Origin: Escherichia coli
GTDB taxonomy: Bacteria; Pseudomonadota; Gammaproteobacteria; Enterobacterales; Enterobacteriaceae
Reading direction: 5' to 3' (one strand)
Length of the DNA stretch: 64,000 bases
Assembly (NCBI RefSeq): GCF_044647545.1
Contig: NZ_CP172818.1
Position numbers and translations under genes: made by a program. This document shows, in pieces, positions 1 to 40,696 of this stretch. Below the pieces are notes generated by a model. The model was not told where the DNA came from and ran no database searches. It saw nothing but the letters and a program-made list of their open reading frames with translations. Positions within the stretch are counted from its first letter, which is position 1; each line of letters opens with the position of its first letter.

Positions 1-216
1 ACTCGCTGGCAACAGGCCGGGCAAAAGGTGAAGCCTGGTTTCAAATTAGCAGGCAAGCTGGTACTTCTTACCGCACTGCGCTATGGCCCGGCGGGTGTGG
101 CGGGCTGGGCGATAAAATCAGTTGCTCGCCGACCGCTGAAAATGTTGCTGGCTGTGGCGCTGGAACCGCTGTTAAGTCGGGCTGCCAATAAACTGGCGCA
201 GCGTTATAAAAGGTGA
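1..216 (+). CDS. pspD: phage shock protein D, 3' portion (start codon lies upstream of window)
   Basis: Frame 1 open from position 1 to TGA at 214-216; translation ...[47 protein letters not shown]... matches recalled PspD; directly upstream of pspE as in the psp operon. Confidence 0.8.
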
Positions 217-290
217 GGGGAGTTTCGCAAAAATTGTTAAAGCTAAGGCGTATTATGGATGGCAATTTTCATCCATAGAAGGACGCTTAC

Positions 291-605
291 ATGTTTAAAA
301 AAGGCTTACTTGCTCTGGCACTGGTGTTTTCACTGCCCGTTTTCGCCGCTGAACACTGGATCGATGTTCGTGTTCCTGAGCAGTATCAGCAAGAGCACGT
401 TCAGGGGGCCATCAATATTCCCCTGAAGGAAGTGAAAGAGCGCATTGCCACCGCCGTTCCGGATAAAAACGACACCGTGAAAGTGTATTGCAATGCCGGA
501 CGCCAGTCAGGGCAGGCAAAAGACATCCTTAGCGAGATGGGATATACCCACGTTGAGAACGCCGGCGGCCTGAAAGACATCGCAATGCCGAAGGTCAAAG
601 GTTAA
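291..605 (+). CDS. pspE: periplasmic rhodanese (thiosulfate sulfurtransferase) PspE
   Basis: 104 aa ORF with signal peptide (MFKKGLLALALVFSLPVFA) and rhodanese active-site region (VYCNAGRQS); position after pspD. Confidence 0.9.
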   Translation: MFKKGLLALALVFSLPVFAAEHWIDVRVPEQYQQEHVQGAINIPLKEVKERIATAVPDKNDTVKVYCNAGRQSGQAKDILSEMGYTHVENAGGLKDIAMPKVKG

Positions 606-618
606 AAGAATCCACCCT

Positions 619-648
619 AAGCGGCGCTTATGCGCCGTTTACTTTTTC
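619..648 (+). terminator. intrinsic terminator downstream of pspE
   Basis: GC-rich hairpin aagcggcgc-ttat-gcgccgttt followed by T-rich run, 14 nt after pspE stop. Confidence 0.5.
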
Positions 649-818
649 TGTCACACCTTATTTACATCCCCATAGATTATTTGCGTCAGCTCACAAATAC
701 GCTTTTTCCCTGGTAAAAAATGATTTCCTGCGTGACTAAAACCCTTGTGCTCAATTGACAGTTTATTTTCTGCGGAGTAGTCTCTCGCTTCATGGGACCG
801 CTACCACGGAAAGGCAAC

Positions 819-2498
819 ATGAAACAGAAAATTACGGATTACCTGGACGAAATCTACGGTGGAACATTTACCACAACTCATTTACAGAAACTTGTAACGC
901 GTCTTGAGAGTGCGAAACGATTAATTACACTGCGACGTAAAAAACACTGGGATGAAAGTGATGTCGTGTTAATCACCTATGCCGATCAATTTCACAGTAA
1001 TGATTTAAAACCACTACCCACATTTAATCAGTTTTACCCTCAATGGCTGCAAAGCATTTTTTCACATGTTCATTTATTACCTTTTTATCCATGGTCATCT
1101 GATGATGGCTTTTCGGTAATTGATTATCAACAGGTCGCTAGTGAAGCGGGGGAGTGGCAGGATATTCAGCAACTCGGTGAATGCAGTCATTTAATGTTTG
1201 ATTTTGTCTGCAACCATATGTCGGCAAAAAGTGAATGGTTTAAAAACTATTTACAACAGCAGCCAGGTTTTGAAGATTTTTTTATTGCCGTTGACCCGCA
1301 AACCGATCTCAGCGTCGTCACTCGCCCGCGTGCGTTACCGTTATTAACGCCATTCCAGATGCGCGATCATTCAACGCGCCATTTATGGACCACCTTTAGT
1401 GACGATCAAATTGACCTGAATTACCGTAGCCCTGAAGTGTTACTGGCGATGGTGGATGTATTGCTGTGCTACCTGGAAAAGGGCGCAGAATATGTCCGTC
1501 TGGATGCCGTTGGCTTTATGTGGAAAGAGCCGGGAACAAGCTGCATCCATCTGGAAAAAACACATCTGATTATCAAACTGTTACGGTCGATTATTGATGA
1601 CGTAGCACCAGGTACAGTGATCATTACCGAGACCAATGTTCCGCACAGAGACAACATTGCTTACTTTGGCAACGGTGATGACGAAGCGCATATGGTGTAC
1701 CAGTTCTCGCTGCCGCCGCTGGTGCTGCATGCGGTGCAAAAACAGAACGTTGAGGCGCTTTGTGCGTGGGCGCAAAACCTGACACTACCTTCCAGCAACA
1801 CCACCTGGTTTAACTTCCTCGCCTCTCACGATGGCATCGGGCTTAACCCACTGCGTGGCTTGCTACCCGAAAGCGAAATATTAGCGCTGGTCGAGGCATT
1901 ACAGCAGGAAGGGGCATTAGTTAACTGGAAAAATAATCCCGACGGTACGCGTAGCCCGTATGAAATGAATGTCACTTATATGGATGCGTTAAACCGCCGC
2001 GAGAGTAGCGATGAAGAACGTTGCGCCAGGTTTATCCTTGCCCATGCGATTTTGTTAAGTTTCCCCGGTGTGCCAGCGATATATATTCAAAGTATTCTGG
2101 GCTCGCGTAATGATTACGCAGGTGTCGAAAAACTGGAATATAACCGTGCGATTAACCGTAAAAAATATTACAGTGAAGAGATCACGACCGAACTGAACAA
2201 TAAAACGACGTTAAGGCACGCGGTATATCATGAATTGTCGCGACTAATTAAAATTCGTCGAAGTCATAACGAGTTTCATCCAGATAATGATTTTACCATC
2301 GACACGGTTAATTCATCCGTAATGTGTATTCAAAGAAGCAACGCGGATGGTAATTGTCTGACAGGATTGTTTAATGTCAGTGAAAATATTCAGCATATAA
2401 ATATTACTGGCCTGCACGGTCGGGATCTGATTAGTGAAGTTGATATAGTGGGTAATGAAATAACGCTGCGCCCCTGGCAGGTTATGTGGATTAAATAA
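819..2498 (+). CDS. ycjM: sucrose-phosphorylase-family glycoside phosphorylase (glucosylglycerate phosphorylase-like)
   Basis: ORF 792-2498; likely ATG at 819 (MKQKITDYL...); GH13-like motifs; first gene of ycjM-V cluster. Confidence 0.85.
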   Translation: MKQKITDYLDEIYGGTFTTTHLQKLVTRLESAKRLITLRRKKHWDESDVVLITYADQFHSNDLKPLPTFNQFYPQWLQSIFSHVHLLPFYPWSSDDGFSVIDYQQVASEAGEWQDIQQLGECSHLMFDFVCNHMSAKSEWFKNYLQQQPGFEDFFIAVDPQTDLSVVTRPRALPLLTPFQMRDHSTRHLWTTFSDDQIDLNYRSPEVLLAMVDVLLCYLEKGAEYVRLDAVGFMWKEPGTSCIHLEKTHLIIKLLRSIIDDVAPGTVIITETNVPHRDNIAYFGNGDDEAHMVYQFSLPPLVLHAVQKQNVEALCAWAQNLTLPSSNTTWFNFLASHDGIGLNPLRGLLPESEILALVEALQQEGALVNWKNNPDGTRSPYEMNVTYMDALNRRESSDEERCARFILAHAILLSFPGVPAIYIQSILGSRNDYAGVEKLEYNRAINRKKYYSEEITTELNNKTTLRHAVYHELSRLIKIRRSHNEFHPDNDFTIDTVNSSVMCIQRSNADGNCLTGLFNVSENIQHINITGLHGRDLISEVDIVGNEITLRPWQVMWIK

Positions 2499-2511
2499 AA
2501 AGGAACATCTC

Positions 2512-3804
2512 ATGATTAAATCAAAAATCGTGCTGTTATCAGCACTGGTTTCCTGCGCCCTGATTTCAGGTTGTAAAGAAGAAAATAAAACGAATGTCTC
2601 CATTGAGTTTATGCATTCTTCGGTGGAACAGGAACGCCAGGCGGTAATTAGTCAGTTAATTGCGCGTTTTGAAAAAGAAAACCCGGGCATCACCGTTAAA
2701 CAAGTGCCCGTGGAAGAAGACGCCTATAACACCAAAGTCATTACCCTTTCACGTAGTGGTTCGCTGCCGGAAGTGATCGAAACCAGCCATGACTACGCCA
2801 AAGTTATGGACAAAGAGCAGCTTATCGATCGCCTGGCGGTTGCCACGGTCATCAGCAACGTCGGTGAAGGCGCGTTCTACGATGGCGTTCTGCGGATTGT
2901 GCGCACCGAAGATGGTAGCGCATGGACCGGTGTTCCTGTCAGCGCCTGGATTGGCGGCATCTGGTATCGCAAAGATGTGCTGGCAAAAGCCGGGCTGGAT
3001 GAGCCGAAAAACTGGCAACAGTTGCTGGATGTCGCACAGAAACTGAACGATCCGGCGAATAAAAAATACGGTATTGCACTGCCGACGGCAGAAAGCGTGC
3101 TGACGGAGCAATCTTTCTCCCAGTTTGCGTTATCCAATCAGGCTAACGTCTTTAACGCCGAAGGCAAAATCACCCTTGATACCCCAGAGATGATGCAGGC
3201 GCTGACCTATTACCGCGACCTTGCTGCCAACACCATGCCGGGTTCTAACGACATTATGGAAGTGAAAGACGCCTTTATGAACGGCACCGCGCCGATGGCG
3301 ATTTACTCCACCTATATCCTTCCGGCTGTGATTAAAGAAGGCGACCCGAAAAATGTCGGTTTCGTGGTGCCAACCGAGAAAAACTCGGCGGTCTACGGCA
3401 TGTTGACCTCGCTAACCATTACCGCCGGGCAAAAGAGCGAAGAGACGGAGGCGGCGGAAAAATTTGTCACCTTTATGGAGCAGGCGGACAACATTGCCGA
3501 CTGGGTGATGATGTCGCCAGGCGCGGCGCTGCCGGTGAACAAAGCGGTTGTGACGACTGCCACCTGGAAAGATAACGACGTGATTAAGGCGCTGGGAGAC
3601 TTGCCGAATCAGTTGATTAGCGAACTGCCAAATATTCAGGTCTTTGGCGCAGTAGGGGATAAAAACTTTACCCGCATGGGCGATGTGACGGGGTCTGGCG
3701 TGGTGAGTTCAATGGTGCATAACGTCACCGTGGGGAAAGCCGATCTCCCTGGCACGCTGCAAGCGAGCCAGAAAAAGCTGGATGAACTGATCGAACAGCA
3801 CTAA
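2512..3804 (+). CDS. ycjN: ABC transporter periplasmic sugar-binding lipoprotein
   Basis: 430 aa ORF, N-terminal lipoprotein signal (LLSALVSCALISGC), family 1 solute-binding protein features, operon context. Confidence 0.85.
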   Translation: MIKSKIVLLSALVSCALISGCKEENKTNVSIEFMHSSVEQERQAVISQLIARFEKENPGITVKQVPVEEDAYNTKVITLSRSGSLPEVIETSHDYAKVMDKEQLIDRLAVATVISNVGEGAFYDGVLRIVRTEDGSAWTGVPVSAWIGGIWYRKDVLAKAGLDEPKNWQQLLDVAQKLNDPANKKYGIALPTAESVLTEQSFSQFALSNQANVFNAEGKITLDTPEMMQALTYYRDLAANTMPGSNDIMEVKDAFMNGTAPMAIYSTYILPAVIKEGDPKNVGFVVPTEKNSAVYGMLTSLTITAGQKSEETEAAEKFVTFMEQADNIADWVMMSPGAALPVNKAVVTTATWKDNDVIKALGDLPNQLISELPNIQVFGAVGDKNFTRMGDVTGSGVVSSMVHNVTVGKADLPGTLQASQKKLDELIEQH

Positions 3805-3824
3805 ACCCAGGACAGGAATCCGCA

Positions 3825-4706
3825 ATGAACAGGCTTTTTTCAGGTCGTTCCGATATGCCTTTTGCACTGCTGCTTCTCGCGCCCAGCTTATTACTGCTGG
3901 GCGGTCTGGTGGCGTGGCCGATGGTGTCGAATATCGAAATCAGTTTTTTACGTCTGCCGCTCAATCCCAACATCGAGTCAACCTTTGTTGGGGTGAGTAA
4001 CTATGTGCGTATTCTCTCCGATCCCGGCTTCTGGCACTCGCTGTGGATGACGGTCTGGTATACCGCGCTGGTGGTGGCGGGCAGCACCGTGCTCGGGCTG
4101 GCCGTGGCGATGTTTTTCAACCGCGAGTTCCGCCTGCGCAAAACCGCGCGTTCGCTGGTGATCCTCTCCTACGTAACGCCGTCTATTTCGCTGGTGTTCG
4201 CCTGGAAATACATGTTCAACAACGGTTACGGCATTGTGAACTACCTCGGCGTCGATCTTCTGCATCTCTATGAGCAGGCACCGCTGTGGTTCGATAATCC
4301 GGGCAGTAGCTTTGTGCTGGTGGTGCTGTTCGCCATCTGGCGCTACTTCCCCTATGCCTTTATTTCGTTTCTGGCGATTTTGCAGACCATCGACAAATCG
4401 CTGTACGAAGCGGCAGAGATGGATGGCGCTAATGCCTGGCAACGGTTTCGTATCGTCACGCTGCCCGCGATTATGCCGGTCCTGGCGACGGTGGTGACCC
4501 TGCGCACCATCTGGATGTTCTACATGTTCGCGGATGTTTATCTGCTGACGACCAAGGTCGATATTCTCGGTGTCTATCTCTACAAAACCGCCTTTGCCTT
4601 TAATGACTTAGGGAAAGCGGCGGCGATCTCGGTGGTGCTCTTCATCATTATTTTCGCTGTCATTCTGCTGACCAGGAAACGGGTGAACCTCAATGGCAAC
4701 AAATAA
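3825..4706 (+). CDS. ycjO: ABC transporter permease (MalF-like)
   Basis: 293 aa multi-TM ORF with permease EAA-like loop; overlaps ycjP start by 14 nt (translational coupling). Confidence 0.85.
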   Translation: MNRLFSGRSDMPFALLLLAPSLLLLGGLVAWPMVSNIEISFLRLPLNPNIESTFVGVSNYVRILSDPGFWHSLWMTVWYTALVVAGSTVLGLAVAMFFNREFRLRKTARSLVILSYVTPSISLVFAWKYMFNNGYGIVNYLGVDLLHLYEQAPLWFDNPGSSFVLVVLFAIWRYFPYAFISFLAILQTIDKSLYEAAEMDGANAWQRFRIVTLPAIMPVLATVVTLRTIWMFYMFADVYLLTTKVDILGVYLYKTAFAFNDLGKAAAISVVLFIIIFAVILLTRKRVNLNGNK

Positions 4707-5535
4707 ACGCACACTCAGTCGCATCGGTTTTTACTGCGGGCTGGCGCTGTTTCTCATCATCACGCTGTTTCCGTTTTTTGTGATGCTGATGACCTCGTTC
4801 AAGAGCGCAAAAGAGGCGATCTCGCTGCATCCTACGCTGCTGCCGCAGCAGTGGACGCTGGAGCATTATGTCGACATTTTTAACCCGATGATTTTCCCGT
4901 TTGTCGATTATTTCCGTAACAGCATGGTGGTGTCGGTAGTTTCATCCGTGATAGCAGTATTTCTCGGCATTCTCGGGGCTTACGCGCTTTCCCGCCTGCG
5001 CTTTAAAGGGCGAATGACCATCAACGCCAGCTTCTACACGGTGTACATGTTCTCCGGCATTTTGCTGGTGGTGCCGCTGTTCAAAATCATCACCGCGCTT
5101 GGCGTTTACGACACCGAGATGGCGCTGATCATCACCATGGTTACGCAAACCCTGCCTACCGCCGTGTTTATGCTGAAAAGCTACTTCGACACCATCCCCG
5201 ATGAAATCGAAGAAGCGGCGATGATGGATGGCCTCAACCGGCTGCAAATCATCTTCCGCATCACGGTACCGCTGGCGATGTCCGGGCTGATATCCGTATT
5301 CGTCTACTGCTTTATGGTGGCATGGAACGACTATCTGTTTGCGTCGATTTTCCTCTCCAGCGCCAGCAATTTCACCTTACCAGTCGGCCTGAACGCGCTG
5401 TTCAGTACGCCTGATTACATCTGGGGACGGATGATGGCGGCCTCGCTGGTGACCGCATTGCCGGTGGTGATTATGTATGCGCTTTCGGAGCGTTTTATTA
5501 AGAGTGGTTTGACCGCCGGTGGCGTGAAGGGCTAA
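4693..5535 (+). CDS. ycjP: ABC transporter permease (MalG-like)
   Basis: 280 aa multi-TM ORF with EAAxxDG motif (EEAAMMDGLNRLQIIFRITVP). Confidence 0.85.
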   Translation: MATNKRTLSRIGFYCGLALFLIITLFPFFVMLMTSFKSAKEAISLHPTLLPQQWTLEHYVDIFNPMIFPFVDYFRNSMVVSVVSSVIAVFLGILGAYALSRLRFKGRMTINASFYTVYMFSGILLVVPLFKIITALGVYDTEMALIITMVTQTLPTAVFMLKSYFDTIPDEIEEAAMMDGLNRLQIIFRITVPLAMSGLISVFVYCFMVAWNDYLFASIFLSSASNFTLPVGLNALFSTPDYIWGRMMAASLVTALPVVIMYALSERFIKSGLTAGGVKG

Positions 5536-5565
5536 AGCGGCCAGTTTCTTGACAAGGAGTTTTAC

Positions 5566-6618
5566 ATGAAAAAGTTAGTAGCCACAGCACCGCGCGTTGC
5601 CGCGCTGGTTGAGTATGAAGATCGGGCGATTTTAGCCAATGAAGTGAAGATCCGCGTGCGTTTCGGCGCACCGAAACACGGAACGGAAGTGGTCGACTTC
5701 CGCGCCGCCAGCCCGTTTATCGATGAAGACTTTAACGGCGAGTGGCAGATGTTCACCCCGCGTCCCGCAGATGCGCCGCGCGGCATTGAGTTTGGCAAAT
5801 TCCAGCTTGGCAACATGGTGGTTGGCGACATTATCGAGTGCGGCAGCGACGTTACCGACTACGCGGTGGGCGACAGCGTATGCGGCTACGGCCCGCTCTC
5901 CGAGACGGTCATCATTAACGCAGTGAATAACTACAAGCTGCGCAAAATGCCGCAAGGCAGCTCCTGGAAAAACGCCGTCTGTTACGACCCGGCGCAGTTT
6001 GCCATGAGCGGCGTGCGCGATGCCAACGTACGCGTAGGGGATTTTGTCGTGGTGGTAGGGCTTGGCGCGATCGGTCAAATTGCCATCCAACTGGCAAAAC
6101 GCGCTGGCGCGTCGGTGGTAATTGGCGTCGATCCTATTACCCGTCGTTGTGAGATTGCCCGTCGCCACGGTGCGGATTTCTGTCTTAACCCCATTGGCGC
6201 TGACGTAGGTAAAGAGATCAAAACGCTGACCGGCAAGCAGGGTGCCGATGTGATTATCGAAACCAGCGGCTACGCCGACGCGCTGCAATCGGCACTTCGC
6301 GGCCTGGCATATGGCGGCACCATCTCGTATGTCGCATTTGCCAAACCATTTGCCGAAGGTTTCAACCTCGGACGTGAAGCCCATTTCAACAACGCCAAAA
6401 TTGTCTTCTCTCGTGCGTGCAGTGAACCGAACCCGGATTATCCGCGCTGGAGTCGCAAGCGTATTGAAGAAACCTGCTGGGAATTGCTGATGAACGGTTA
6501 TCTCAATTGTGAAGATTTGATCGACCCGGTGGTGACCTTTGCCAATAGCCCGGAAAGCTACATGCAGTATGTCGATCAGCATCCGGAACAGAGCATCAAA
6601 ATGGGCGTTACGTTTTAA
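5566..6618 (+). CDS. ycjQ: Zn-dependent medium-chain dehydrogenase (sugar 3-dehydrogenase family)
   Basis: 350 aa ORF with Rossmann GLGAIG motif; RBS aaggag upstream; operon context. Confidence 0.85.
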   Translation: MKKLVATAPRVAALVEYEDRAILANEVKIRVRFGAPKHGTEVVDFRAASPFIDEDFNGEWQMFTPRPADAPRGIEFGKFQLGNMVVGDIIECGSDVTDYAVGDSVCGYGPLSETVIINAVNNYKLRKMPQGSSWKNAVCYDPAQFAMSGVRDANVRVGDFVVVVGLGAIGQIAIQLAKRAGASVVIGVDPITRRCEIARRHGADFCLNPIGADVGKEIKTLTGKQGADVIIETSGYADALQSALRGLAYGGTISYVAFAKPFAEGFNLGREAHFNNAKIVFSRACSEPNPDYPRWSRKRIEETCWELLMNGYLNCEDLIDPVVTFANSPESYMQYVDQHPEQSIKMGVTF

Positions 6619-6635
6619 TTCAAAGGAATGAAAAA

Positions 6636-7424
6636 ATGAAAATAGGCACACAGAATCAGGCATTCTTTCCGGAAAATATTCTGGAGAAATTTCGTTATAT
6701 CAAAGAGATGGGCTTCGATGGTTTTGAGATTGACGGCAAACTGCTGGTCAACAACATCGAAGAAGTCAAAGCGGCAATCAAAGAAACCGGCTTACCGGTG
6801 ACCACCGCCTGCGGCGGCTATGACGGCTGGATTGGCGACTTTATCGAAGAGCGTCGTCTTAATGGCTTAAAGCAGATCGAACGCATTCTTGAAGCGCTGG
6901 CCGAAGTGGGCGGTAAAGGTATCGTCGTTCCTGCTGCATGGGGCATGTTTACCTTCCGTTTACCGCCGATGACCTCGCCGCGCAGCCTGGATGGCGACCG
7001 CAAAATGGTGAGTGATTCCCTGCGCGTACTGGAGCAGGTGGCAGCGCGTACCGGAACCGTGGTGTATCTCGAACCGTTAAACCGTTATCAGGATCACATG
7101 ATCAACACCCTCGCCGATGCCCGCCGTTACATCGTCGAAAACGATCTTAAACATGTACAGATTATCGGCGATTTCTATCACATGAATATCGAAGAAGATA
7201 ACCTGGCGCAGGCGTTGCACGACAACCGCGACTTGCTCGGTCATGTGCATATTGCCGATAACCATCGTTACCAGCCGGGCAGCGGCACCCTCGATTTCCA
7301 CGCGCTGTTTGAACAGCTGCGCGCCGATAACTATCAGGGTTATGTGGTGTATGAAGGGCGTATCCGGGCAGAAGATCCTGCCCAGGCGTACCGTGATTCT
7401 TTGGCCTGGGTGCGTACCTGCTAA
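6636..7424 (+). CDS. ycjR: sugar phosphate isomerase/epimerase (xylose isomerase-like TIM barrel)
   Basis: 262 aa ORF, TIM-barrel epimerase family features, operon context. Confidence 0.85.
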   Translation: MKIGTQNQAFFPENILEKFRYIKEMGFDGFEIDGKLLVNNIEEVKAAIKETGLPVTTACGGYDGWIGDFIEERRLNGLKQIERILEALAEVGGKGIVVPAAWGMFTFRLPPMTSPRSLDGDRKMVSDSLRVLEQVAARTGTVVYLEPLNRYQDHMINTLADARRYIVENDLKHVQIIGDFYHMNIEEDNLAQALHDNRDLLGHVHIADNHRYQPGSGTLDFHALFEQLRADNYQGYVVYEGRIRAEDPAQAYRDSLAWVRTC

Positions 7425-7433
7425 GAGGTCTTT

Positions 7434-8489
7434 GTGAAAAGTGCAATGACAAGCTCTCCGCTGCGAGTCGCGATCATAGGCGCGGGCCAGGTGGCGGATA
7501 AAGTTCATGCTTCGTACTACTGCACCCGCAACGATCTGGAACTGGTGGCTGTCTGTGACAGCCGCCTTTCCCAGGCGCAGGCGCTGGCAGAAAAATACGG
7601 GAATGCATCCGTGTGGGACGATCCGCAGGCCATGCTGCTGGCGGTGAAACCTGATGTGGTTAGCGTCTGCTCACCTAACCGTTTTCATTACGAACATACC
7701 CTGATGGCGCTGGAAGCGGGCTGCCATGTGATGTGCGAAAAACCGCCCGCCATGACGCCAGAACAAGCGCGGGAAATGTGCGATACCGCGCGCAAACAGG
7801 GCAAGGTGCTGGCCTACGACTTTCACCATCGTTTTGCACTCGATACGCAACAGCTGCGTGAACAGGTGACCAACGGCGTTTTGGGAGAGATTTACGTTAC
7901 CACCGCCCGCGCCCTGCGTCGCTGCGGTGTTCCCGGCTGGGGTGTCTTTACTAATAAAGAATTGCAGGGCGGCGGGCCGCTTATTGACATCGGCATTCAT
8001 ATGCTGGATGCGGCGATGTATGTACTGGGCTTTCCGGCGGTGAAAAGCGTGACCGCGCATAGCTTTCAAAAGATCGGAACGCAAAAGAGCTGCGGTCAAT
8101 TTGGCGAGTGGGACCCGGCAACCTACAGCGTCGAAGATTCGCTGTTTGGCACCATTGAATTTCATAACGGCGGCATTCTGTGGCTTGAGACCTCATTTGC
8201 ACTCAACATCCGCGAACAGTCGATTATGAACGTCAGCTTTTGTGGTGATAAAGCCGGGGCGACGCTGTTTCCAGCACATATCTACACCGATAACAACGGT
8301 GAGTTAATGACGCTGATGCAACGGGAAATGGCAGACGACAACCGTCATCTGCGCAGTATGGAAGCCTTTATCAACCACGTACAAGGTAAGCCCGTGATGA
8401 TAGCCGACGCCGAGCAGGGGTACATCATCCAGCAACTGGTGGCGGCGTTGTATCAATCCGCAGAAACAGGAACGCGTGTGGAATTATGA
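7434..8489 (+). CDS. ycjS: Gfo/Idh/MocA family NAD-dependent oxidoreductase
   Basis: 351 aa ORF starting at GTG; N-terminal Rossmann (VAIIGAGQVA); operon context. Confidence 0.85.
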   Translation: MKSAMTSSPLRVAIIGAGQVADKVHASYYCTRNDLELVAVCDSRLSQAQALAEKYGNASVWDDPQAMLLAVKPDVVSVCSPNRFHYEHTLMALEAGCHVMCEKPPAMTPEQAREMCDTARKQGKVLAYDFHHRFALDTQQLREQVTNGVLGEIYVTTARALRRCGVPGWGVFTNKELQGGGPLIDIGIHMLDAAMYVLGFPAVKSVTAHSFQKIGTQKSCGQFGEWDPATYSVEDSLFGTIEFHNGGILWLETSFALNIREQSIMNVSFCGDKAGATLFPAHIYTDNNGELMTLMQREMADDNRHLRSMEAFINHVQGKPVMIADAEQGYIIQQLVAALYQSAETGTRVEL

Positions 8490-10752
8490 CCAGGCCAGTA
8501 ACGTTAACGGAACCCCATTTCAGCCAGCATACCCTGAACAAGTATGCTTCGCTGATGGCGCAGGGGAACGGCTATCTTGGGCTTCGCGCCAGCCATGAAG
8601 AAGATTATACGCGCCAGACACGCGGTATGTATCTGGCGGGGCTTTATCATCGCGCGGGGAAAATGACATCAACGAACTGGTGAACCTGCCTGACGTCATA
8701 GGGATGGAGATTACCTTGAATGGTGAACTTTTTGCGCTATCCCGCGAAACGTGGCAGCGCGAGCTTGACTTCGCCAGTGGTGAATTACGTCGCAATGTCG
8801 TCTGGTCTTCAGCCAGCGGCGCACGTTATGCCATTGCCAGCCGTCGCTTTGTTTCGGCAGAACAACTGCCGCTGATGGCGCTGGAAATCAGCATTACGCC
8901 GCTGGACGCTGACGCGTCAGTGCTGATTTCAACAGGCATTGACGCCACGCAAACCAACCACGGACGACAACATCTCGACGAAACCCAGGTGCGGGTGTTT
9001 GGTCAGCATTTGATGCAGGGGATCTATACCACTCAGGATGGACGCAGTGATGTGGCCATCAGCTGTTGCTGCCAGGTGAGCGGTGACGTGCAGCAATGCT
9101 ATACCGCCAAAGAGCGCCGCTTGCTGCAACATACCAGTGCACAACTACCTGCGGGCAAAACGCTGACGCTGCAAAAACGGGTGTGGATCGACTGGCGGGA
9201 CGACAGACACGTCGCTTTAGACGAGTGGGGTAGTGCATCGCTTCGTCAGCTTGAAATGTGTGTACAGCAGAGTTACGACCAACTTCTTGCAGCATCCACA
9301 GAAAACTGGCGTCAATGGTGGCAGAAACGTCGTATCACGGTAAACGGTGGCGATGCGCACGATCAGCAAGCGTTAGATTATGCGCTTTATCACCTACGCA
9401 TCATGACGCCTGCTCACGACGAGCGCAGCAGTATTGCGGCAAAAGGTTTGACCGGGGAAGGCTACAAAGGCCACGTTTTCTGGGATACGGAAGTATTTTT
9501 ACTGCCGTTCCATCTGTTTAGCGAACCGACGATTGCCAGAAGTTTACTGCGTTATCGCTGGCACAACTTGCCAGGCGCGCAGGAGAAAGCGCGACGCAAC
9601 GGCTGGCAGGGCGCGCTATTTCCGTGGGAAAGCGCGCGCAGCGGCGAAGAAGAGACGCCGGAATTTGCCGCCATTAACATTCGCACCGGGCTGCGGCAAA
9701 AAGTGGCCTCGGCGCAGGCGGAACATCATCTGGTCGCCGATATCGCCTGGGCGGTTGTTCAATACTGGCAGACCACGGGGGATGAAAGTTTCATTGCTCA
9801 TGAAGGCATGGCGCTACTTCTGGAAACTGCAAAGTTCTGGATTAGCCGCACGGTGAGGGTTAACGACCGTCTGGAAATTCATGATGTTATTGGGCCAGAC
9901 GAATATACCGAACATGTCAATAATAACGCCTTCACCAGCTATATGGCGTATTACAACGTCCAGCAGGCGCTGAACATCGCTCGTCAATTTGGCTGTAGCG
10001 ACGATGCGTTTATCCATCGCGCCGAAATGTTCCTTAAAGAACTGCGGCTGCCAGAAATTCAGCCCGACCGCGTTTTGCCGCAGGATGATTCGTTTATGGC
10101 GAAACCAGCGATTAATCTGGCGAAATACAAAGCGGCGGCGGGGAAGCAAACCATTCTGCTGGATTATTCACGCGCAGAAGTGAACGAGATGCAGATCCTC
10201 AAACAAGCTGATGTGGTGATGCTCAATTACATGCTGCCGGAGCAGTACTCAGCGGCATCGTGTCTTGCCAATCTGCAATTTTATGAACCGCGCACCATTC
10301 ACGACTCTTCACTGAGTAAAGCGATCCACGGCATTGTTGCCGCACGCTGTGGCCTGTTGGCGCAAAGTTATCAGTTCTGGCGGGAGGGGACTGAAATCGA
10401 TCTTGGTGCTGATCCGCATAGCTGTGATGACGGTATCCACGCTGCCGCAACTGGCGCAATCTGGTTGGGGGCGATTCAGGGTTTTGCCGGGGCGAGCGTG
10501 CGCAACGGTGAATTACATCTCAATCCGGCGTTACCTGAGCAGTGGCAACAGTTGTCTTTCCCTCTGTTCTGGCAGGGCTGTGAATTACAGGTCACTCTTG
10601 ACGCGCAGCGCATTGCGATTCGGACTTCTGCGCCAGTTTCACTGCGTTTGAACGGTCAGCTTATTTCAGTCTCTGAAGAATCTGTTTTCTGTTTAGGGGA
10701 TTTTATTTTGCCCTTCAATGGGACCGCTACCACGCATCAGGAGGGTGAATGA
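8486..10752 (+). pseudogene. ycjT: kojibiose phosphorylase (GH65) with reading frame interrupted by a 1-nt frameshift near 8665-8680
   Basis: Two consecutive ORFs (8486-8683 and 8680-10752) together give a GH65-like protein of about 755 aa; frame changes inside the A-run ggggaaaatgac (restoring one A gives ...HRAGKNDINELVNLPDVIGMEITLNG...). Confidence 0.7.
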
Positions 10753-11408
10753 AACTGCAAGGGGTAATTTTCGATCTGGATGGAGTAATCACCGATACCG
10801 CACATCTGCATTTCCAGGCGTGGCAGCAGATTGCCGCTGAAATTGGCATCAGCATTGATGCGCAGTTTAACGAATTCCTAAAAGGGATCAGCCGCGATGA
10901 GTCCCTGCGGCGAATTCTGCAGCACGGGGGTAAAGAGGGCGATTTTAACCCACAGGAACGGGCGCAACTGGCGTATCGCAAAAATCTGCTTTACGTCCAC
11001 TCACTGCGCGAACTGACGGTTAATGCTGTGCTGCCTGGCATTCACAATTTGCTGGTAGAGCTCCGAGCACAGCAGATTCCGGTTGGGCTGGCTTCTGTCT
11101 CCCTGAATGCGCCGACGATTTTAGCAGCGCTGGAGCTGCGCGAGTTTTTCACCTTCTGCGCGGACGCTTCCCAACTCAAAAATTCGAAACCGGACCCGGA
11201 AATCTTTCTCGCCGCCTGTGCAGGGCTGGGCGTGCCGCCACAGGCATGTATCGGCATTGAAGATGCGCAGGCGGGCATTGAAGCCATTAACGCCAGCGGT
11301 ATGCGCTCGGTGGGGATCGGCGCGGGCTTAACCGGGGCGCAATTGCTGTTGCCCTCAACGGAATCTCTCACATGGTCGCGGTTATCGGCCTTCTGGCAAA
11401 ACGTATAG
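10749..11408 (+). CDS. ycjU: beta-phosphoglucomutase (HAD superfamily)
   Basis: 219 aa ORF with HAD motif I ([12 protein letters not shown]); start overlaps ycjT stop. Confidence 0.9.
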
Positions 11409-11421
11409 CAAAGGAATCAAC

Positions 11422-12504
11422 ATGGCTCAGCTTTCGTTACAACATATTCAAAAAATCTACGATAACCAGGTGCATGTGGTGAAGGACTTCAACCTGGAAA
11501 TTGCCGATAAAGAGTTCATTGTCTTTGTCGGTCCGTCAGGCTGCGGTAAATCGACTACGCTGCGCATGATTGCCGGGCTTGAGGAGATCAGCGGTGGCGA
11601 TCTGTTGATCGACGGCAAACGAATGAATGACGTTCCAGCCAAAGCGCGCAATATCGCGATGGTGTTCCAGAACTACGCGCTGTATCCGCATATGACGGTC
11701 TACGACAACATGGCGTTTGGCCTGAAGATGCAAAAAATCGCCAAAGAGGTGATTGATGAGCGGGTTAACTGGGCGGCGCAAATCCTCGGCCTGCGTGAGT
11801 ACCTGAAACGCAAGCCGGGCGCGCTTTCTGGCGGGCAACGCCAGCGTGTGGCGCTCGGACGGGCGATTGTGCGCGAAGCGGGCGTGTTTTTAATGGATGA
11901 ACCGCTCTCTAACCTTGATGCCAAGCTGCGCGTACAAATGCGCGCAGAGATCAGCAAGCTGCATCAGAAACTGAACACCACCATGATCTACGTGACCCAC
12001 GATCAGACCGAAGCGATGACCATGGCGACGCGGATTGTGATTATGAAGGATGGGATTGTTCAGCAGGTCGGTGCGCCGAAAACGGTTTATAACCAACCTG
12101 CGAATATGTTTGTTGCCGGATTTATTGGATCGCCTGCGATGAATTTTATTCGCGGCACGATCGATGGCGATAAATTCGTTACGGAAACGCTTAAATTAAC
12201 CATACCCGAAGAGAAATTAGCGGTTCTGAAAACACAGGAAAGTTTGCATAAGCCCATCGTGATGGGAATACGCCCGGAAGATATTCATCCGGACGCGCAA
12301 GAGGAAAATAACATTTCCGCCAAAATTAGCGTGGCAGAATTAACCGGTGCGGAATTTATGCTCTACACCACGGTTGGGGGGCACGAGTTAGTGGTCCGTG
12401 CTGGTGCGTTAAATGATTATCATGCAGGAGAAAATATCACTATTCATTTTGATATGACTAAATGTCATTTCTTTGATGCAGAAACGAAAATAGCAATTCG
12501 CTAA
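11422..12504 (+). CDS. ycjV: ABC transporter ATP-binding protein (MalK-like)
   Basis: 360 aa ORF with Walker A (GPSGCGKST), ABC signature (LSGGQRQRV) and Walker B (FLMDEPLSNLD). Confidence 0.85.
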   Translation: MAQLSLQHIQKIYDNQVHVVKDFNLEIADKEFIVFVGPSGCGKSTTLRMIAGLEEISGGDLLIDGKRMNDVPAKARNIAMVFQNYALYPHMTVYDNMAFGLKMQKIAKEVIDERVNWAAQILGLREYLKRKPGALSGGQRQRVALGRAIVREAGVFLMDEPLSNLDAKLRVQMRAEISKLHQKLNTTMIYVTHDQTEAMTMATRIVIMKDGIVQQVGAPKTVYNQPANMFVAGFIGSPAMNFIRGTIDGDKFVTETLKLTIPEEKLAVLKTQESLHKPIVMGIRPEDIHPDAQEENNISAKISVAELTGAEFMLYTTVGGHELVVRAGALNDYHAGENITIHFDMTKCHFFDAETKIAIR

Positions 12505-12548
12505 ATACAGGGGGAAGGCATTCCCCCAGAATAATACAAGGAACAATA

Positions 12549-13454
12549 ATGAAAAAGTTATTACCCTGTACCGCACTGGTGATGTGTGCGGGAATGGCTT
12601 GCGCACAGGCCGAGGAAAAGAACGACTGGCACTTTAATATCGGCGCGATGTACGAAATAGAAAACGTCGAAGGTTATGGCGAAGATATGGATGGGCTCGC
12701 GGAGCCTTCTGTCTATTTTAATGCCGCCAACGGGCCGTGGAGAATTTCTCTGGCCTATTATCAGGAAGGGCCGGTAGATTATAGCGCGGGTAAACGTGGA
12801 ACGTGGTTTGATCGCCCGGAGCTGGAGGTACATTATCAGTTCCTCGAAAGCGATGATTTCAGTTTCGGTCTGACTGGTGGTTTCCGTAATTATGGTTATC
12901 ACTACGTTGATGAACCGGGTAAAGACACGGCGAATATGCAGCGTTGGAAAATCGCGCCAGACTGGGATGTGAAACTGACTGACGATTTACGTTTCAACGG
13001 TTGGTTATCGATGTATAAATTTGCCAACGATCTGAACACGACCGGTTACGCTGATACCCGAGTCGAAACGGAAACAGGTCTGCAATATACCTTCAACGAA
13101 ACGGTTGCTTTGCGAGTGAACTATTATCTCGAGCGCGGCTTCAATATGGACGACAGCCGCAATAACGGTGAGTTTTCCACGCAAGAAATTCGTGCCTATT
13201 TGCCGCTGACGCTCGGCAACCACTCGGTGACGCCGTATACGCGCATTGGGCTGGATCGCTGGAGTAACTGGGACTGGCTGGATGATATTGAACGTGAAGG
13301 CCATGATTTTAACCGTGTGGGGTTATTTTACGGTTATGATTTCCAGAATGGTCTTTCCGTTTCGCTGGAATACGCGTTTGAGTGGCAGGATCACGACGAA
13401 GGCGACAGCGATAAATTCCATTATGCAGGTGTCGGCGTAAATTACTCGTTCTGA
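12549..13454 (+). CDS. ompG: outer membrane porin OmpG
   Basis: 301 aa ORF with signal peptide and C-terminal aromatic residue (..GVNYSF); sequence matches recalled OmpG. Confidence 0.9.
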   Translation: MKKLLPCTALVMCAGMACAQAEEKNDWHFNIGAMYEIENVEGYGEDMDGLAEPSVYFNAANGPWRISLAYYQEGPVDYSAGKRGTWFDRPELEVHYQFLESDDFSFGLTGGFRNYGYHYVDEPGKDTANMQRWKIAPDWDVKLTDDLRFNGWLSMYKFANDLNTTGYADTRVETETGLQYTFNETVALRVNYYLERGFNMDDSRNNGEFSTQEIRAYLPLTLGNHSVTPYTRIGLDRWSNWDWLDDIEREGHDFNRVGLFYGYDFQNGLSVSLEYAFEWQDHDEGDSDKFHYAGVGVNYSF

Positions 13455-13503
13455 TAATGGGTTAAATTGCCGGATGCGGCGCGAGCGCTAAATCGGCATA
13501 CAT

Positions 13504-14502
13504 TTATTTCAACGACATATGCGTAGCAACGGTAATATTTTGTGGTGACGGTTTTCCGGCAATTAGCTGGAATAATAACTCGCAGCTTTGTTGACCTAAC
13601 TCCTGCGTCGGAACATCGATGCCGCCTGGTGCAGGCGTTAATATAAACGACAGCGTTTCATTACTATAACCCACCACCGCTAACTGCTGCGGAATAGCAA
13701 TGTTTTTCTCTGCCGCCGCACGATAAATACTCATTAATTTCAGGCTGTCAGTAGCAAACACTGCCTCAGGCAACGGTGACTGGCTTAATAATTCCCGTGC
13801 GGCTTGCAAGGCTGTTTCATGGGTATAACCGCCGTCAACAATCCATTCATCACGCACTGCAATATTATGCGTAGCCAGGCTTTGCTTATAACCATTTACC
13901 CGATCCACTGAAACATGAACATCAAGCGGCGCATGCAGGCAGGCAATATTCTTATGCCCGCTTTCAATTAACGCATTGGTCAGCGCAATACTGTCGCCAT
14001 AATTATCGGTATCGACGGAATAAACATGGCTGTATTGACCTTCAACTTTGCCAATTACCACTACCGGGATCTCGTATTTGTCGAGTTGTGCAAAGAAGGA
14101 TTCATCGGCAGGCGAACTTAGCATAATAATGCCTTTAATCATTTTCTGCTTAATTTTGCTTTCGCATTTTTGCAGATCTTCTGCCGGATTGTGCGACGTT
14201 TGTAATATCACGTCGAAACCTTCTTCTTCCGCTTTGGCGGTGATGGCATGCAAAACTTCAGAGAAAAACGGATTACCCGCCGTAGTTTTGGTCGAACGGG
14301 TAGAAATCACCATAATGGCATCAAAACCCGAAGAGGTCAGCGCGCGTGCCAGCTTGTTTGGTTGATACTGTAATTCTTCAATGGCCCGTAACACTTTTTC
14401 GCGCGCTTCCGGGGAGATATTGGTTTGCTTATTCAGCACGCGTGATACGGTGGATTTTGATACGCCTGCAACCCTGGCAATATCATAAATAGTAGGGGAC
14501 AT
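13504..14502 (-). CDS. ycjW: LacI-family transcriptional repressor
   Basis: 332 aa ORF, N-terminal HTH ([24 protein letters not shown]), periplasmic-binding-like C-domain. Confidence 0.9.
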
Positions 14503-14656
14503 AGGTCAGGAACTCCGTCCGAACGTGAATGTTGCACATCTTATGGAGTTCGCCCGTCGATGACAACACGGGCAGTTGATAATCAATGGCCTGGCCCCCA
14601 CATTCATATTCTTACGAATGATTTTTTTCTGGTCTTCAGAGCAGCACAGGACAGCA

Positions 14657-16054
14657 ATGAAGCGACTTAAAAATGAACTTAATGCGCTGGTGAATCGGGG
14701 TGTCGACAGACATCTGCGCCTCGCCGTAACCGGACTTAGCCGCAGCGGCAAAACGGCGTTTATCACTGCGATGGTCAATCAGTTGCTCAATATTCACGCC
14801 GGAGCAAGGTTGCCGCTGTTAAGCGCGGTGCGTGAAGAACGGCTGCTGGGCGTAAAACGCATTCCCCAGCGTGACTTTGGCATTCCGCGCTTCACCTATG
14901 ATGAAGGGCTGGCGCAGTTATATGGCGATCCACCCGCCTGGCCAACGCCAACGCGCGGCGTCAGCGAAATTCGCCTGGCGCTACGTTTTAAATCGAACGA
15001 TTCGCTGCTACGCCACTTTAAGGATACCTCCACGCTGTATCTGGAGATTGTGGATTATCCCGGCGAATGGTTGCTCGACCTGCCGATGCTGGCGCAGGAC
15101 TATTTAAGCTGGTCGCGCCAGATGACGGGCTTACTTAATGGTCAGCGCGGCGAATGGTCGGCGAAATGGCGAATGATGTGCGAAGGGCTGGACCCGCTAG
15201 CGCCTGCCGACGAAAACCGGCTGGCAGACATTGCCGCCGCGTGGACCGATTATCTCCACCACTGTAAACAGCAGGGGCTGCACTTTATTCAGCCTGGGCG
15301 CTTTGTCTTGCCGGGAGATATGGCAGGTGCGCCCGCGCTGCAATTCTTCCCGTGGCCAGATGTTGATGCCTGGGGCGAGTCCAAACTGGCGCAGGCCGAT
15401 AAGCACACCAATGCCGGAATGTTGCGCGAGCGGTTTAATTATTACTGCGAGAAAGTGGTGAAGGGGTTCTATAAGAATCATTTTCTGCGCTTTGACCGCC
15501 AGATTGTGCTGGTGGACTGCCTGCAACCTCTCAACAGTGGGCCACAGGCATTTAATGATATGCGTCTGGCGCTGACGCAACTGATGCAAAGTTTTCACTA
15601 CGGGCAGCGAACCCTGTTCCGGCGTTTGTTTTCACCGGTTATCGATAAGCTATTGTTTGCTGCCACTAAAGCAGACCATGTGACCATCGATCAGCACGCC
15701 AATATGGTTTCATTACTGCAACAACTGATTCAGGATGCCTGGCAAAATGCGGCGTTCGAAGGGATCAGCATGGACTGCCTGGGGCTGGCGTCAGTTCAGG
15801 CGACCACCAGCGGCATTATTGATGTTAACGGTGAGAAAATCCCGGCGCTGCGCGGTAATCGACTCAGCGATGGCGCACCGCTCACTGTTTATCCTGGCGA
15901 AGTTCCCGCTCGTTTGCCCGGTCAGGCGTTCTGGGATAAGCAAGGCTTCCAGTTTGAGGCGTTTCGTCCGCAGGTGATGGATGTTGACAAACCGCTGCCG
16001 CATATTCGCCTTGATGCTGCGCTGGAATTTTTAATAGGAGATAAATTGCGATGA
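14657..16054 (+). CDS. ycjX: conserved P-loop NTPase of unknown function (YcjX family)
   Basis: ORF 14576-16054; likely ATG at 14657 (MKRLKNEL...); Walker A-like GLSRSGKT; stop overlaps ycjF start (ATGA). Confidence 0.85.
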
Positions 16055-17112
16055 CCGAACCGTTAAAACCACGTATTGATTTCGACGGTCCGCTGGATGT
16101 CGATCAGAATCCTGAATTCAGGGCGCAGCAGACCTTTGACGAAAATCAGGCGCAAAATTTTGCCCCGGCCACGCTCGACGAAGCGCAGGAAGAAGAGGGG
16201 CAAGTTGAAGCGGTGATGGACGCAGCGTTACGTCCGAAACGCAGCCTGTGGCGCAAAATGGTGATGGGCGGGCTGGCTCTGTTTGGCGCAAGCGTTGTCG
16301 GGCAGGGGGTACAGTGGACAATGAATGCCTGGCAAACCCAGGACTGGGTAGCGCTGGGTGGATGTGCCGCAGGGGCATTGATTATCGGCGCTGGCGTAGG
16401 TTCTGTGGTAACAGAGTGGCGGCGCTTATGGCGCTTGCGACAGCGCGCCCATGAACGCGACGAAGCGCGTGATTTATTGCACAGCCATGGCACCGGCAAA
16501 GGCCGCGCATTTTGCGAAAAACTGGCGCAGCAGGCGGGCATCGATCAGTCACATCCGGCGCTGCAACGCTGGTATGCCTCAATCCATGAAACGCAAAACG
16601 ACCGTGAAGTGGTCAGTTTGTATGCGCATTTGGTCCAGCCAGTTTTAGATGCCCAGGCACGGCGCGAAATCAGCCGTTCGGCAGCGGAATCAACATTGAT
16701 GATTGCGGTCAGCCCGCTGGCGCTGGTGGATATGGCATTTATCGCCTGGCGCAATCTGCGTTTGATTAATCGCATCGCCACGCTGTATGGCATTGAACTG
16801 GGGTATTACAGCCGTTTGCGCCTGTTCAAGCTGGTATTGCTGAATATCGCTTTCGCCGGAGCCAGCGAACTGGTGCGCGAAGTGGGGATGGACTGGATGT
16901 CGCAAGATCTCGCTGCTCGTTTGTCTACCCGCGCAGCTCAGGGGATTGGTGCAGGACTTCTGACGGCACGACTGGGGATTAAAGCTATGGAGCTTTGCCG
17001 CCCGCTGCCGTGGATTGACGATGACAAGCCACGCCTCGGGGATTTCCGTCGTCAGCTTATCGGTCAGGTGAAAGAAACTCTGCAAAAAGGCAAAACGCCC
17101 AGCGAAAAATAA
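16051..17112 (+). CDS. ycjF: conserved inner-membrane protein of unknown function (YcjF family)
   Basis: 353 aa ORF with hydrophobic segments; translationally coupled to ycjX. Confidence 0.85.
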
Positions 17113-17171
17113 TGCAATATCGGGTGCTGACCGGATATCTTTACGCCGAAGTGCCCGTTTTTCCGTCTTTG

Positions 17172-17189
17172 TGTCAATGATTGTTGACA
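17172..17189 (+). promoter_or_regulatory. TyrR-box-like palindrome upstream of tyrR (candidate autoregulatory site)
   Basis: tgtcaa-tgattg-ttgaca, fits TGTAAA-N6-TTTACA class, about 70 bp upstream of tyrR start. Confidence 0.5.
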
Positions 17190-17259
17190 GAAACCTTCCT
17201 GCTATTCAAATAGTGTCATATCATCATATTAATTGTTCTTTTTTCAGGTGAAGGTTCCC

Positions 17260-21138: not shown

Positions 21139-21318
21139 GATCGTCTCTGGTTCAGGAAGTATTACAGGCAGTGTTGTGCAAATTTTGCGGATTATCAAAT
21201 CCTTTTCTTCAACGCTATGTTATCGATCTTTTCACTTTTTTGCCGGAAGTTGTTTGCATTTCTTTAAGGCGAAACAAATAATTACGCATCAATTTTAATG
21301 TCGGTTAGAGGGAAACTT

Positions 21319-24014: not shown

Positions 24015-24253
24015 TGTTTTATCAGGCTCCTCCAGATAATTGTCGTCATGCCGGAAACCCCTGGCGGGACTATTTTACCGCGACAATTCATTCAGATCAT
24101 CAATAGTCAGGGAAGGAAGTAGCAACTCTAACTAATCAATACGTTGATTGTAAATCCAGCTAAGAGGTGAGGTTTTCAGAGCAGACAACGGTGAAATGTC
24201 ATGGTATTGTTACGTTTAGGTAACAAGAAATTTGTCTGCACAAGGATTACATC

Positions 24254-32544: not shown

Positions 32545-32640
32545 ATAAAAAAATAGAGTCTGTCGACATCCGCCAGACTCTACAGTACACACAGCAGTGC
32601 ATCCGCGTCTTAAATCCGGCATGGTCTCCTCTGCGCCGGT
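32545..32640 (-). ncRNA. mcaS: small regulatory RNA McaS (IsrA)
   Basis: Reverse complement reads ACCGGCGCAGAGGAGAC...GAGTCTGGCGGATGTCGACAGACTCTATTTTTTTAT, matching the recalled McaS sequence including terminator hairpin and U-tail; abgR-smrA intergenic location. Confidence 0.8.
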
Positions 32641-36017: not shown

Positions 36018-36139
36018 GCAGGTGAATGCAACGTCAAGCGATGGGCGTTGCGCTCCATATTGTCTTACTTCCTTTTTTGAATTACTGCATAGCACAATTG
36101 ATTCGTACGACGCCGACTTTGATGAGTCGGCTTTTTTTT
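36018..36139 (+). ncRNA. fnrS: FNR-activated small RNA FnrS
   Basis: Sequence GCAGGTGAATGCAACGTCAAGCGATGGGCG...CGACGCCGACTTTGATGAGTCGGCTTTTTTTT matches recalled FnrS, ending in a terminator hairpin plus 8 Ts; zntB-dbpA intergenic location. Confidence 0.8.
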
Positions 36140-40414: not shown

Positions 40415-40696
40415 TTAATTTGAATACAATGCAATTCTCGAGGACTGAAGTTTCTCGCAATTAAAATTTATCAGTTTTACTTTCTGCTCTCTGGAAACGC
40501 CTGCTTCTTTTTTACCTGAGAGCATTTTTTCGCATTCTGATTTCGTTAGTTTAGATTTTGAATATCTTGTCCAGTTAGTAGGAGTGCCACCTTCCTTTTC
40601 AATAGTGGCGGTAATTTTATACATGAACACCTCCATTATTATTTCCAGTGGTTCGTTTATTCCATCTTTCGAGTGCTTCTTTTTCACTTCCACCAT
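40415..40696 (-). CDS. ydaC: prophage protein of unknown function (alternative internal starts give a 69-73 aa product)
   Basis: 93 aa maximal ORF; internal Met candidates (MEVFMYKITATIEKEGG...); overlaps the 3' end of ralR. Confidence 0.6.
   Translation of the reverse strand: MVEVKKKHSKDGINEPLEIIMEVFMYKITATIEKEGGTPTNWTRYSKSKLTKSECEKMLSGKKEAGVSREQKVKLINFNCEKLQSSRIALYSN

Follow-up and report, generated by a model that had tools for sequence, protein, structure and literature searches.

When one gene of a sugar-utilisation operon is interrupted in a genome sequence, has the enzyme been lost or a base been missed, and which sugar does the operon serve? This question was raised by a stretch of 64,000 nucleotides (nt) from Escherichia coli (contig NZ_CP172818.1, RefSeq assembly GCF_044647545.1), here called the window, in which the ycj gene cluster at positions 792–14502 carries a frameshifted ycjT. 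The cluster comprises the chromosomal genes ycjMNOPQRSTUV and ompG together with ycjW, flanked by pspE and ycjX, and we hold it almost certain that this is the well-studied ycjM–ompG operon for sugar uptake and breakdown with its repressor YcjW. The operon, the repressor, the operators and the in vitro enzyme activities are all published, and the identification is already known. The anatomy of the locus departs from that of the K-12 system solely in which gene is broken: ycjV is a pseudogene in K-12 MG1655 and intact here, whereas ycjT is intact there and frameshifted here. All features below lie on the + strand unless stated otherwise.

Identity and conservation of the ycj locus

The gene order and the flanks of the cluster (pspE upstream, ycjX downstream) were the same as those of b1309–b1320 in K-12 MG1655, with an orthologue for each of the twelve genes, 94–100% amino acid (aa) identity per gene, and identical operator 14-mers at the same positions, although the DNA identity is about 95%. 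Pfam, NCBIfam and the RefSeq annotation of the corresponding locus in strain FDAARGOS_497 bore out all twelve gene-family assignments. Consistently, the gene content, order, names and families proposed in a first-pass annotation of the window, including a complete ATP-binding cassette (ABC) importer, a porin and a LacI-type regulator, all held.

The best genome matches were FDAARGOS_497 (NZ_CP033850.1), Ecol_881, MS6198, ECONIH1 and others, which carry loci identical to that of FDAARGOS_497. Over 17.5 kb (window 1–17502), only four differences from FDAARGOS_497 were found, namely the loss of one A in ycjT, the loss of one C in the ompG–ycjW spacer (13495), and substitutions at 12487, where a Glu close to the C-terminus of YcjV becomes Lys, and at 15364. 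FDAARGOS_497 has the same 12-gene annotation, with all twelve genes annotated intact. Among 5426 complete E. coli genomes, the cluster was matched in 5050, and at least 80% of it was present in 4942; 376 genomes had no match to it, and another 108 carry less than 80%.

Interruption of ycjT at a short homopolymer tract

The frame of ycjT is broken in the given sequence by the loss of one A, which reduces a run of five A's to four (8660–8663), as the first-pass annotation had noticed. Base-by-base comparison with FDAARGOS_497 placed the change in the tract GGGGAAAA (G4A4; 8656–8663), which reads GGGGAAAAA (G4A5) in the intact relatives, so that the codons CGC GCG GGG AAA AAT GAC of the relatives become CGC GCG GGG AAA ATG ACA in the window. 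Two open reading frames (ORFs) result. The 5′ fragment (8486–8683) has 65 codons followed by TGA at 8681–8683 and covers profile positions 1–50 of Pfam Glyco_hydro_65N, while the remainder (8680–10752; 690 codons) encodes the kojibiose phosphorylase, a member of glycoside hydrolase family 65 (GH65), minus its first 65 residues, with the central and C domains of GH65 and the N domain from profile position 67 onward. The GTG that opens the remainder (8680–8682) overlaps the TGA of the fragment as GTGA.

As written, therefore, no single polypeptide holds the GH65 domains, the N-domain being split over the 65-aa and 690-aa ORFs, and only restoration of one A unites them. The repaired YcjT has 755 aa and is 93.8% identical to K-12 YcjT. 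Its residues 18–726 align with the Caldicellulosiruptor saccharolyticus kojibiose phosphorylase (CsKP; PDB 3WIQ, E=1.6e-110), with K320, E473 and S608/S609 corresponding to CsKP K330, E483 and S631/S632, which are the phosphate-binding Lys, the catalytic acid Glu and the phosphate-binding Ser-Ser, respectively (PMC11442529). These residues are thus conserved with the structural GH65 reference (PDB 3WIQ/3WIR), although CsKP is a distant homologue, not an orthologue, and ycjT of the window is split after codon 65.

The ycjT allele of the window, as recognized at the megablast level, was found in 213 of the 5426 complete genomes (about 4%), and an exact 61-mer match to the intact tract was present in 207 of these 213. 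Nowhere in the cluster is the divergence from K-12 greater than in segment 8501–9500 of ycjT, where the DNA identity falls to 89–91%, compared with about 95% overall. Because 213 of the 5426 genomes carry this allele and its 5′ third is so divergent from K-12, the comparison suggests that distinct ycjT allele classes exist within E. coli.

Sequencing error, mutation or bypass

Three origins of the frameshift were weighed, and between the first two, a genuine mutation and an assembly error, the chances are roughly even. If a homopolymer was under-called during sequencing or assembly, YcjT would be whole in the strain, at 755 aa, and the operon would be fully functional. In support of such an artefact, the comparison of an approximately 39 kb core with FDAARGOS_497 revealed 2 substitutions and 4 indel loci, all of the latter being deletions in the window, and two of the four were single-base losses from short homopolymers. 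Neither of these two single-base deletions, the A5 to A4 change in ycjT and that in the ompG–ycjW spacer, occurs in any complete RefSeq genome, and the second one (CC to C, 13495) disrupts the 3′-arm stem of a palindrome resembling the repetitive extragenic palindromic (REP) consensus. Further, the same 65-aa product was found in 9 other public contigs of different backgrounds, through G4 to G3 in six and A5 to A4 in three, and several of the nine have more homopolymer deletions nearby, one draft having 11 indels in 6.2 kb.

In contrast, all other core coding sequences, across about 25 kb, are in frame with those of FDAARGOS_497; therefore the assembly is not generally error-ridden. The same tract is moreover truly frameshifted in the complete genome of FDAARGOS_1267, where it reads G5A3 and the gene is flagged as "frameshifted" by RefSeq; FDAARGOS_1267 shares 5 kb at 100% identity with a 125-kb contig that an independent run produced, and nine further contigs have the same gene neighbourhood. 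With these observations on both sides, we place the artefact a little short of an even chance.

The other explanation of comparable standing is that the frameshift is a genuine, strain-private loss of function; ycjT would then be a pseudogene, slippage would recur at the G4A5 tract of this allele, and the kojibiose branch of the pathway would be dispensable. Homopolymer slippage is the commonest natural route to a frameshift, and the FDAARGOS_1267 lineage carries, as a fixed allele, an independent −1 change in this very tract. Decay of the cluster is seen elsewhere too, in the ycjV pseudogene of the K-12 lineage and in the genomes, counted above, that lack the cluster in whole or in part. Against a genuine mutation, the tract is intact in nearly all complete genomes with this allele (207 of 213), the private differences of the window are exclusively deletions and look technical, and the contigs that share the truncated product are mostly shorter than 2 kb, some of them visibly error-prone. 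Overall, a genuine mutation was judged to stand at an even chance.

A third origin would leave some functional YcjT in spite of the broken frame, made through programmed −1 frameshifting, transcriptional slippage, or re-initiation at the GTG. The GTGA overlap of stop and GTG can indeed permit termination-reinitiation, but translation re-initiated there would yield a product whose N-terminal beta-sandwich domain lacks residues 1–65. Efficient transcriptional slippage needs a longer run than four A's. The frameshift is also not conserved among relatives, and three different alleles strike the same tract, which also speaks against a bypass. Programmed ribosomal frameshifting in particular was ruled out, because no X XXY YYZ slippery heptamer lies in the zero frame (GCG GGG AAA ATG) and the tract is uninterrupted in 207 of the 213 genomes. 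A bypass of any of the three kinds is thus highly improbable.

Taken together, public data hold three −1 alleles at the GGGGAAAAA tract, which only this ycjT allele has: G4A4 (the window and 3 contigs), G3A5 (6 contigs) and G5A3 (FDAARGOS_1267 and the contig identical to it). The ycjT tract is a hot spot for errors, mutations or both. That it is a recurrent natural slippage hot spot, with the kojibiose-phosphorylase branch inactivated in nature again and again, each time independently, we regard as doubtful; were it true, it would suggest relaxed selection on YcjT or selection against it while the remainder of the operon is kept.

YcjW, its operators and the putative ycjM promoter

The repressor gene ycjW (13504–14502, − strand) encodes a LacI-family protein of 332 aa with 96.7% aa identity to K-12 YcjW. 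The LacI helix-turn-helix domain (PF00356) occupies residues 4–49, and is followed by the periplasmic-binding-protein-like effector domains PF00532 and PF13377. The first-pass annotation described the gene as divergent; it is in fact convergent (tail-to-tail) with ompG and divergent only from ycjX. The ompG–ycjW spacer is 49 bp long here and 110 bp in K-12, and contains the putative REP-like palindrome (13469–13497), recognized by its resemblance to the known consensus.

A candidate operator was obtained by reading the ycjM leader, and the window was then searched with that 14-mer. The exact 14-mer TGGGACCGCTACCA, an imperfect palindrome with a central CG, occurred twice in the searched region: at 793–806, 12 nt upstream of the ycjM ATG (operator 1), and at 10719–10732, within the 3′ end of ycjT and 16 nt upstream of the ycjU ATG (operator 2). 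K-12 carries identical copies at both relative positions. In K-12, one of the two strongest YcjW peaks in chromatin immunoprecipitation sequencing (ChIP-seq) lies directly ahead of the start codon of ycjM and the other between ycjT and ycjU, YcjW binding was confirmed by electrophoretic mobility shift assay (EMSA), and a 14-nt motif was defined (PMC6599011, Luhachack et al.); the two copies in the window correspond to these ChIP-seq and EMSA sites. When up to 3 mismatches were allowed, the count of operator matches was not above chance, so that the assignment rests on the two exact copies, the published positions and the identity with K-12. Neither a strict palindrome scan (positions 1–15000, 14–20-mers, central CG, at most 1–2 mismatched pairs) nor an inverted-repeat search of the intergenic regions recovered the operator; the 2 mismatched pairs in its imperfect palindrome account for this.

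Operator mapping had been suggested upstream of ycjM and ompG. An operator was found at ycjM, whereas the 14-mer search gave none upstream of ompG, the second site being located upstream of ycjU. Deletion of ycjW in K-12 strongly raises the expression of ycjM, ycjT, ycjU and ompG, and kojibiose, but not sucrose or trehalose, frees YcjW from DNA in vitro (PMC6599011). Co-regulation by YcjW, the point on which the first-pass annotation was to stand or fall, has thus been demonstrated in K-12, and both operators here are identical to those of K-12. Autoregulation of ycjW was also considered and dropped, as the ycjW–ycjX spacer contained nothing resembling the operator at up to 3 mismatches.

One near-perfect operator-like site, TCGGACCGCTACCA (1 mismatch), was observed far from the cluster at 59608–59621. 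It lies within a 191-aa ORF (59340–59915) that adjoins the tail-fibre gene stfR in a Rac-like prophage, and overlaps the region of an Rfam IS009 match (59683–59881). By a rough estimate made by hand, about 0.02 matches with at most 1 mismatch would arise by chance in 64 kb; the site is probably coincidental.

The start of ycjM annotated in K-12 and FDAARGOS_497 corresponds to window position 819 and is preceded by GGAAAGG. The ATG at 792, where the first-pass annotation began ycjM and the cluster, is in frame and opens the longest ORF; it lacks a ribosome-binding site and falls within the YcjW operator, and 819 was accordingly adopted as the start. Upstream, a putative sigma-70 promoter of ycjM was read by eye at 755–783, consisting of TTGACA (755–760), a 17-nt spacer and TAGTCT (778–783). 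Transcription of ycjM would then start near 790–792, and operator 1 would span about +2 to +16 of the promoter, in agreement with the description in PMC6599011. In a consensus promoter scan, shuffled sequence yielded at least as many sites, and this likely promoter was overlooked because its −10 hexamer matches the consensus at 3/6 positions only. Upstream of operator 2 the sequence showed no convincing sigma-70 promoter, so that an internal ycjU promoter is unsupported.

Uptake system, enzymes and proposed pathway

The porin gene ompG (12549–13454) encodes a monomeric 14-stranded outer-membrane porin with a 21-aa signal peptide (Pfam Porin_OmpG, PF09381, 326.9 bits), and its residues 22–301 match the solved E. 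coli OmpG (PDB 2IWV, E=1e-195). A G+C-rich hairpin, CAGGGGGAAGGCATTCCCCCAG, revealed by the inverted repeat search, separates it from ycjV (12509–12530). The importer is of the CUT1 type, and is complete and intact, with a binding protein, two permeases and a MalK-like ATPase with an OB/TOBE domain. The solute-binding lipoprotein YcjN (2512–3804; 430 aa; Pfam SBP_bac_1) has the lipobox LISGC with Cys21 and matches the solved E. coli YcjN (PDB 8VQK, E=1e-277), which is lipidated at Cys21 and resembles maltose-binding protein in structure (PMC11543891). The permeases YcjO (3825–4706) and YcjP (4693–5535), both Pfam BPD_transp_1, show 100% and 98.6% aa identity to K-12, respectively. The MalK-type ATPase gene ycjV (11422–12504; 360 aa; Pfam ABC_tran, OB_MalK, TOBE_2) is intact, as in most E. 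coli, while in K-12 a 1-nt deletion, at the place that corresponds to window position 12376, leaves the pseudogenes ycjV/ymjB. This deletion allele was found in 370 of 4995 genomes with the region, and among the matches listed, all were K-12 laboratory derivatives.

Of the enzymes, YcjM (819–2498; 559 aa; Pfam Alpha-amylase, PF00128) is annotated in the FDAARGOS_497 locus as a glycoside hydrolase family 13 (GH13) glucosylglycerate phosphorylase and is 94.6% identical to K-12 YcjM. It scored 220 bits with TIGR03852, the sucrose phosphorylase equivalog, which is under the cut-off of 334, and is accordingly predicted to be a GH13 glucosylglycerate phosphorylase, not a member of the sucrose phosphorylase equivalog. 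The Zn-dependent dehydrogenase YcjQ (5566–6618; Pfam ADH_zinc_N; annotated in K-12 as D-guloside 3-dehydrogenase) showed 98.9% aa identity to K-12. The TIM-barrel (xylose-isomerase-like) epimerase YcjR, a 3-keto-D-guloside/glucoside 4-epimerase (6636–7424; Pfam AP_endonuc_2), showed 99.6% identity and matched the solved E. coli YcjR (PDB 6WN6, E=3e-179), and the Gfo/Idh/MocA oxidoreductase YcjS, a D-glucoside 3-dehydrogenase (7434–8489; Pfam GFO_IDH_MocA N- and C-terminal domains), showed 99.1%. The beta-phosphoglucomutase YcjU, also named PgmB (10749–11408), was assigned by NCBIfam TIGR01990 (270.5 bits; cut-off 189.4) and the RefSeq annotation of the FDAARGOS_497 locus. For the K-12 proteins, in vitro activities are known as kojibiose phosphorylase (YcjT), beta-phosphoglucomutase (YcjU) and glucosylglycerate phosphorylase (YcjM), and as D-guloside 3-dehydrogenase, 3-keto-glycoside 4-epimerase and D-glucoside 3-dehydrogenase (YcjQ, YcjR and YcjS, respectively), which together convert guloside to glucoside (PMC11543891, PMC11442529 and the K-12 RefSeq product names).

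Based on these assignments, OmpG would pass oligosaccharides or glycosides across the outer membrane, and the lipoprotein YcjN, the permeases YcjO and YcjP and the MalK-like ATPase YcjV would import them. In the cytoplasm, YcjT would phosphorolyse kojibiose (alpha-1,2-glucosylglucose) to glucose and beta-glucose-1-phosphate, the latter being turned into glucose-6-phosphate by YcjU, while glucosylglycerate would be phosphorolysed by YcjM. D-gulosides would be converted to D-glucosides through C3 oxidation by YcjQ, C4 epimerisation by YcjR and C3 reduction by YcjS. YcjW would control the system from its two identical 14-bp operators, at the ycjM promoter and upstream of ycjU, and be released by kojibiose as it is in vitro. 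The enzyme steps and the control by YcjW were shown in K-12 by others, whereas the transport steps, the promoter position and the physiological substrate are what we infer. Since the ycjT frame is broken, the kojibiose branch would therefore be off in the sequence as written, and ycjU, ycjV and ompG could, through polarity, be expressed less strongly from the ycjM promoter.

The mal regulon of E. coli (LamB, MalE/F/G/K, MalP) offers a close parallel, as it likewise joins a sugar channel in the outer membrane to a CUT1-type importer whose ATPase is MalK-like and to a phosphorylase in the cytoplasm. In contrast to it, the ycj system is governed by a LacI-type repressor instead of the activator MalT, and has a monomeric porin, two phosphorylases of different families and an epimerisation module. 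In a ligand screen, YcjN showed no binding of maltose (PMC11543891).

Several points weigh against this picture of an operon for kojibiose, glucosylglycerate and gulosides whose kojibiose branch is off. The frameshift may be an assembly error, and the latter statement would then fail; the promoter position and the polarity are likewise deduced from the sequence. With kojibiose as the only carbon source K-12 does not grow, and those who observed this doubt that kojibiose is the natural inducer and suggest a kojibiose derivative (PMC6599011). In the published ligand screen no sugar, kojibiose among them, was bound by YcjN (PMC11543891). These findings also favour a different main role, in which kojibiose, glucosylglycerate and gulosides are proxies for another natural glycoside or oligosaccharide, or in which the operon matters through an effect on pspE and hydrogen sulphide (H2S) production, as de-repression of the regulon raises both pspE expression and H2S production (PMC6599011). 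However, the K-12 growth tests are a weak negative, because the transporter ATPase gene ycjV is a pseudogene there. The in vitro specificities, moreover, cohere: a phosphorylase is paired with a beta-phosphoglucomutase, and three other enzymes form a three-step epimerisation. A main role of this different kind was considered unlikely, though well within consideration. The earlier statement that the native substrate is not evident from sequence stands as regards physiology, given the lack of K-12 growth on kojibiose and of a YcjN ligand, but understates the biochemistry, in which six enzymes have in vitro activities.

Other features of the window

The upstream neighbour of the operon, pspE (291–605), is followed by an intrinsic terminator at 618–641, detected in a terminator scan, with a 10-pair stem of which 6 pairs are G-C and then the T-run CTTTTTCTGT; this hairpin marks the upstream boundary of the operon. 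Downstream of the cluster, deletions private to the window relative to FDAARGOS_497 were seen in two intergenic regions, at 21231–21232 (mpaA–mppA; 2 single bases) and 24127–24128 (ynaI–ynaJ; 2+2 bases), and the 25 kb around them are otherwise almost identical to FDAARGOS_497 (1 substitution).

From approximately 38.9 kb to 64 kb the window holds a mosaic Rac-like prophage. Its left part (to about 50.1 kb) and trkG (50.1–52.6 kb) are 97.5–99.7% identical to FDAARGOS_497, and its right part (52.5–64 kb) matches the Rac end of K-12 at 97.4% identity, with ynaA, an IS5 copy, stfR and pinR, then ompN. The integrase gene intR next to ttcA (38889–40119, − strand) appears fragmented into ORFs of 150 and 185 aa; in FDAARGOS_497 it has 1236 bp (411 codons), and several indels, together with many substitutions, cluster at 39207–39633. 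Rfam matches above the gathering score were the small RNAs McaS (32545–32640, − strand), FnrS (36018–36135) and RalA, the antitoxin of RalR (40440–40618), and IS009, at the position given above (+ strand).

Implications

The interruption of ycjT in this genome should not be counted as a gene loss before the reads have been checked. The failed growth on kojibiose and the uncertainty about the substrate both derive from K-12, in which ycjV is a lineage-specific pseudogene. Natural isolates of the present lineage have an intact ycjV; therefore, relatives such as FDAARGOS_497, with twelve intact genes, would be better hosts in which to search for the substrate of the operon.

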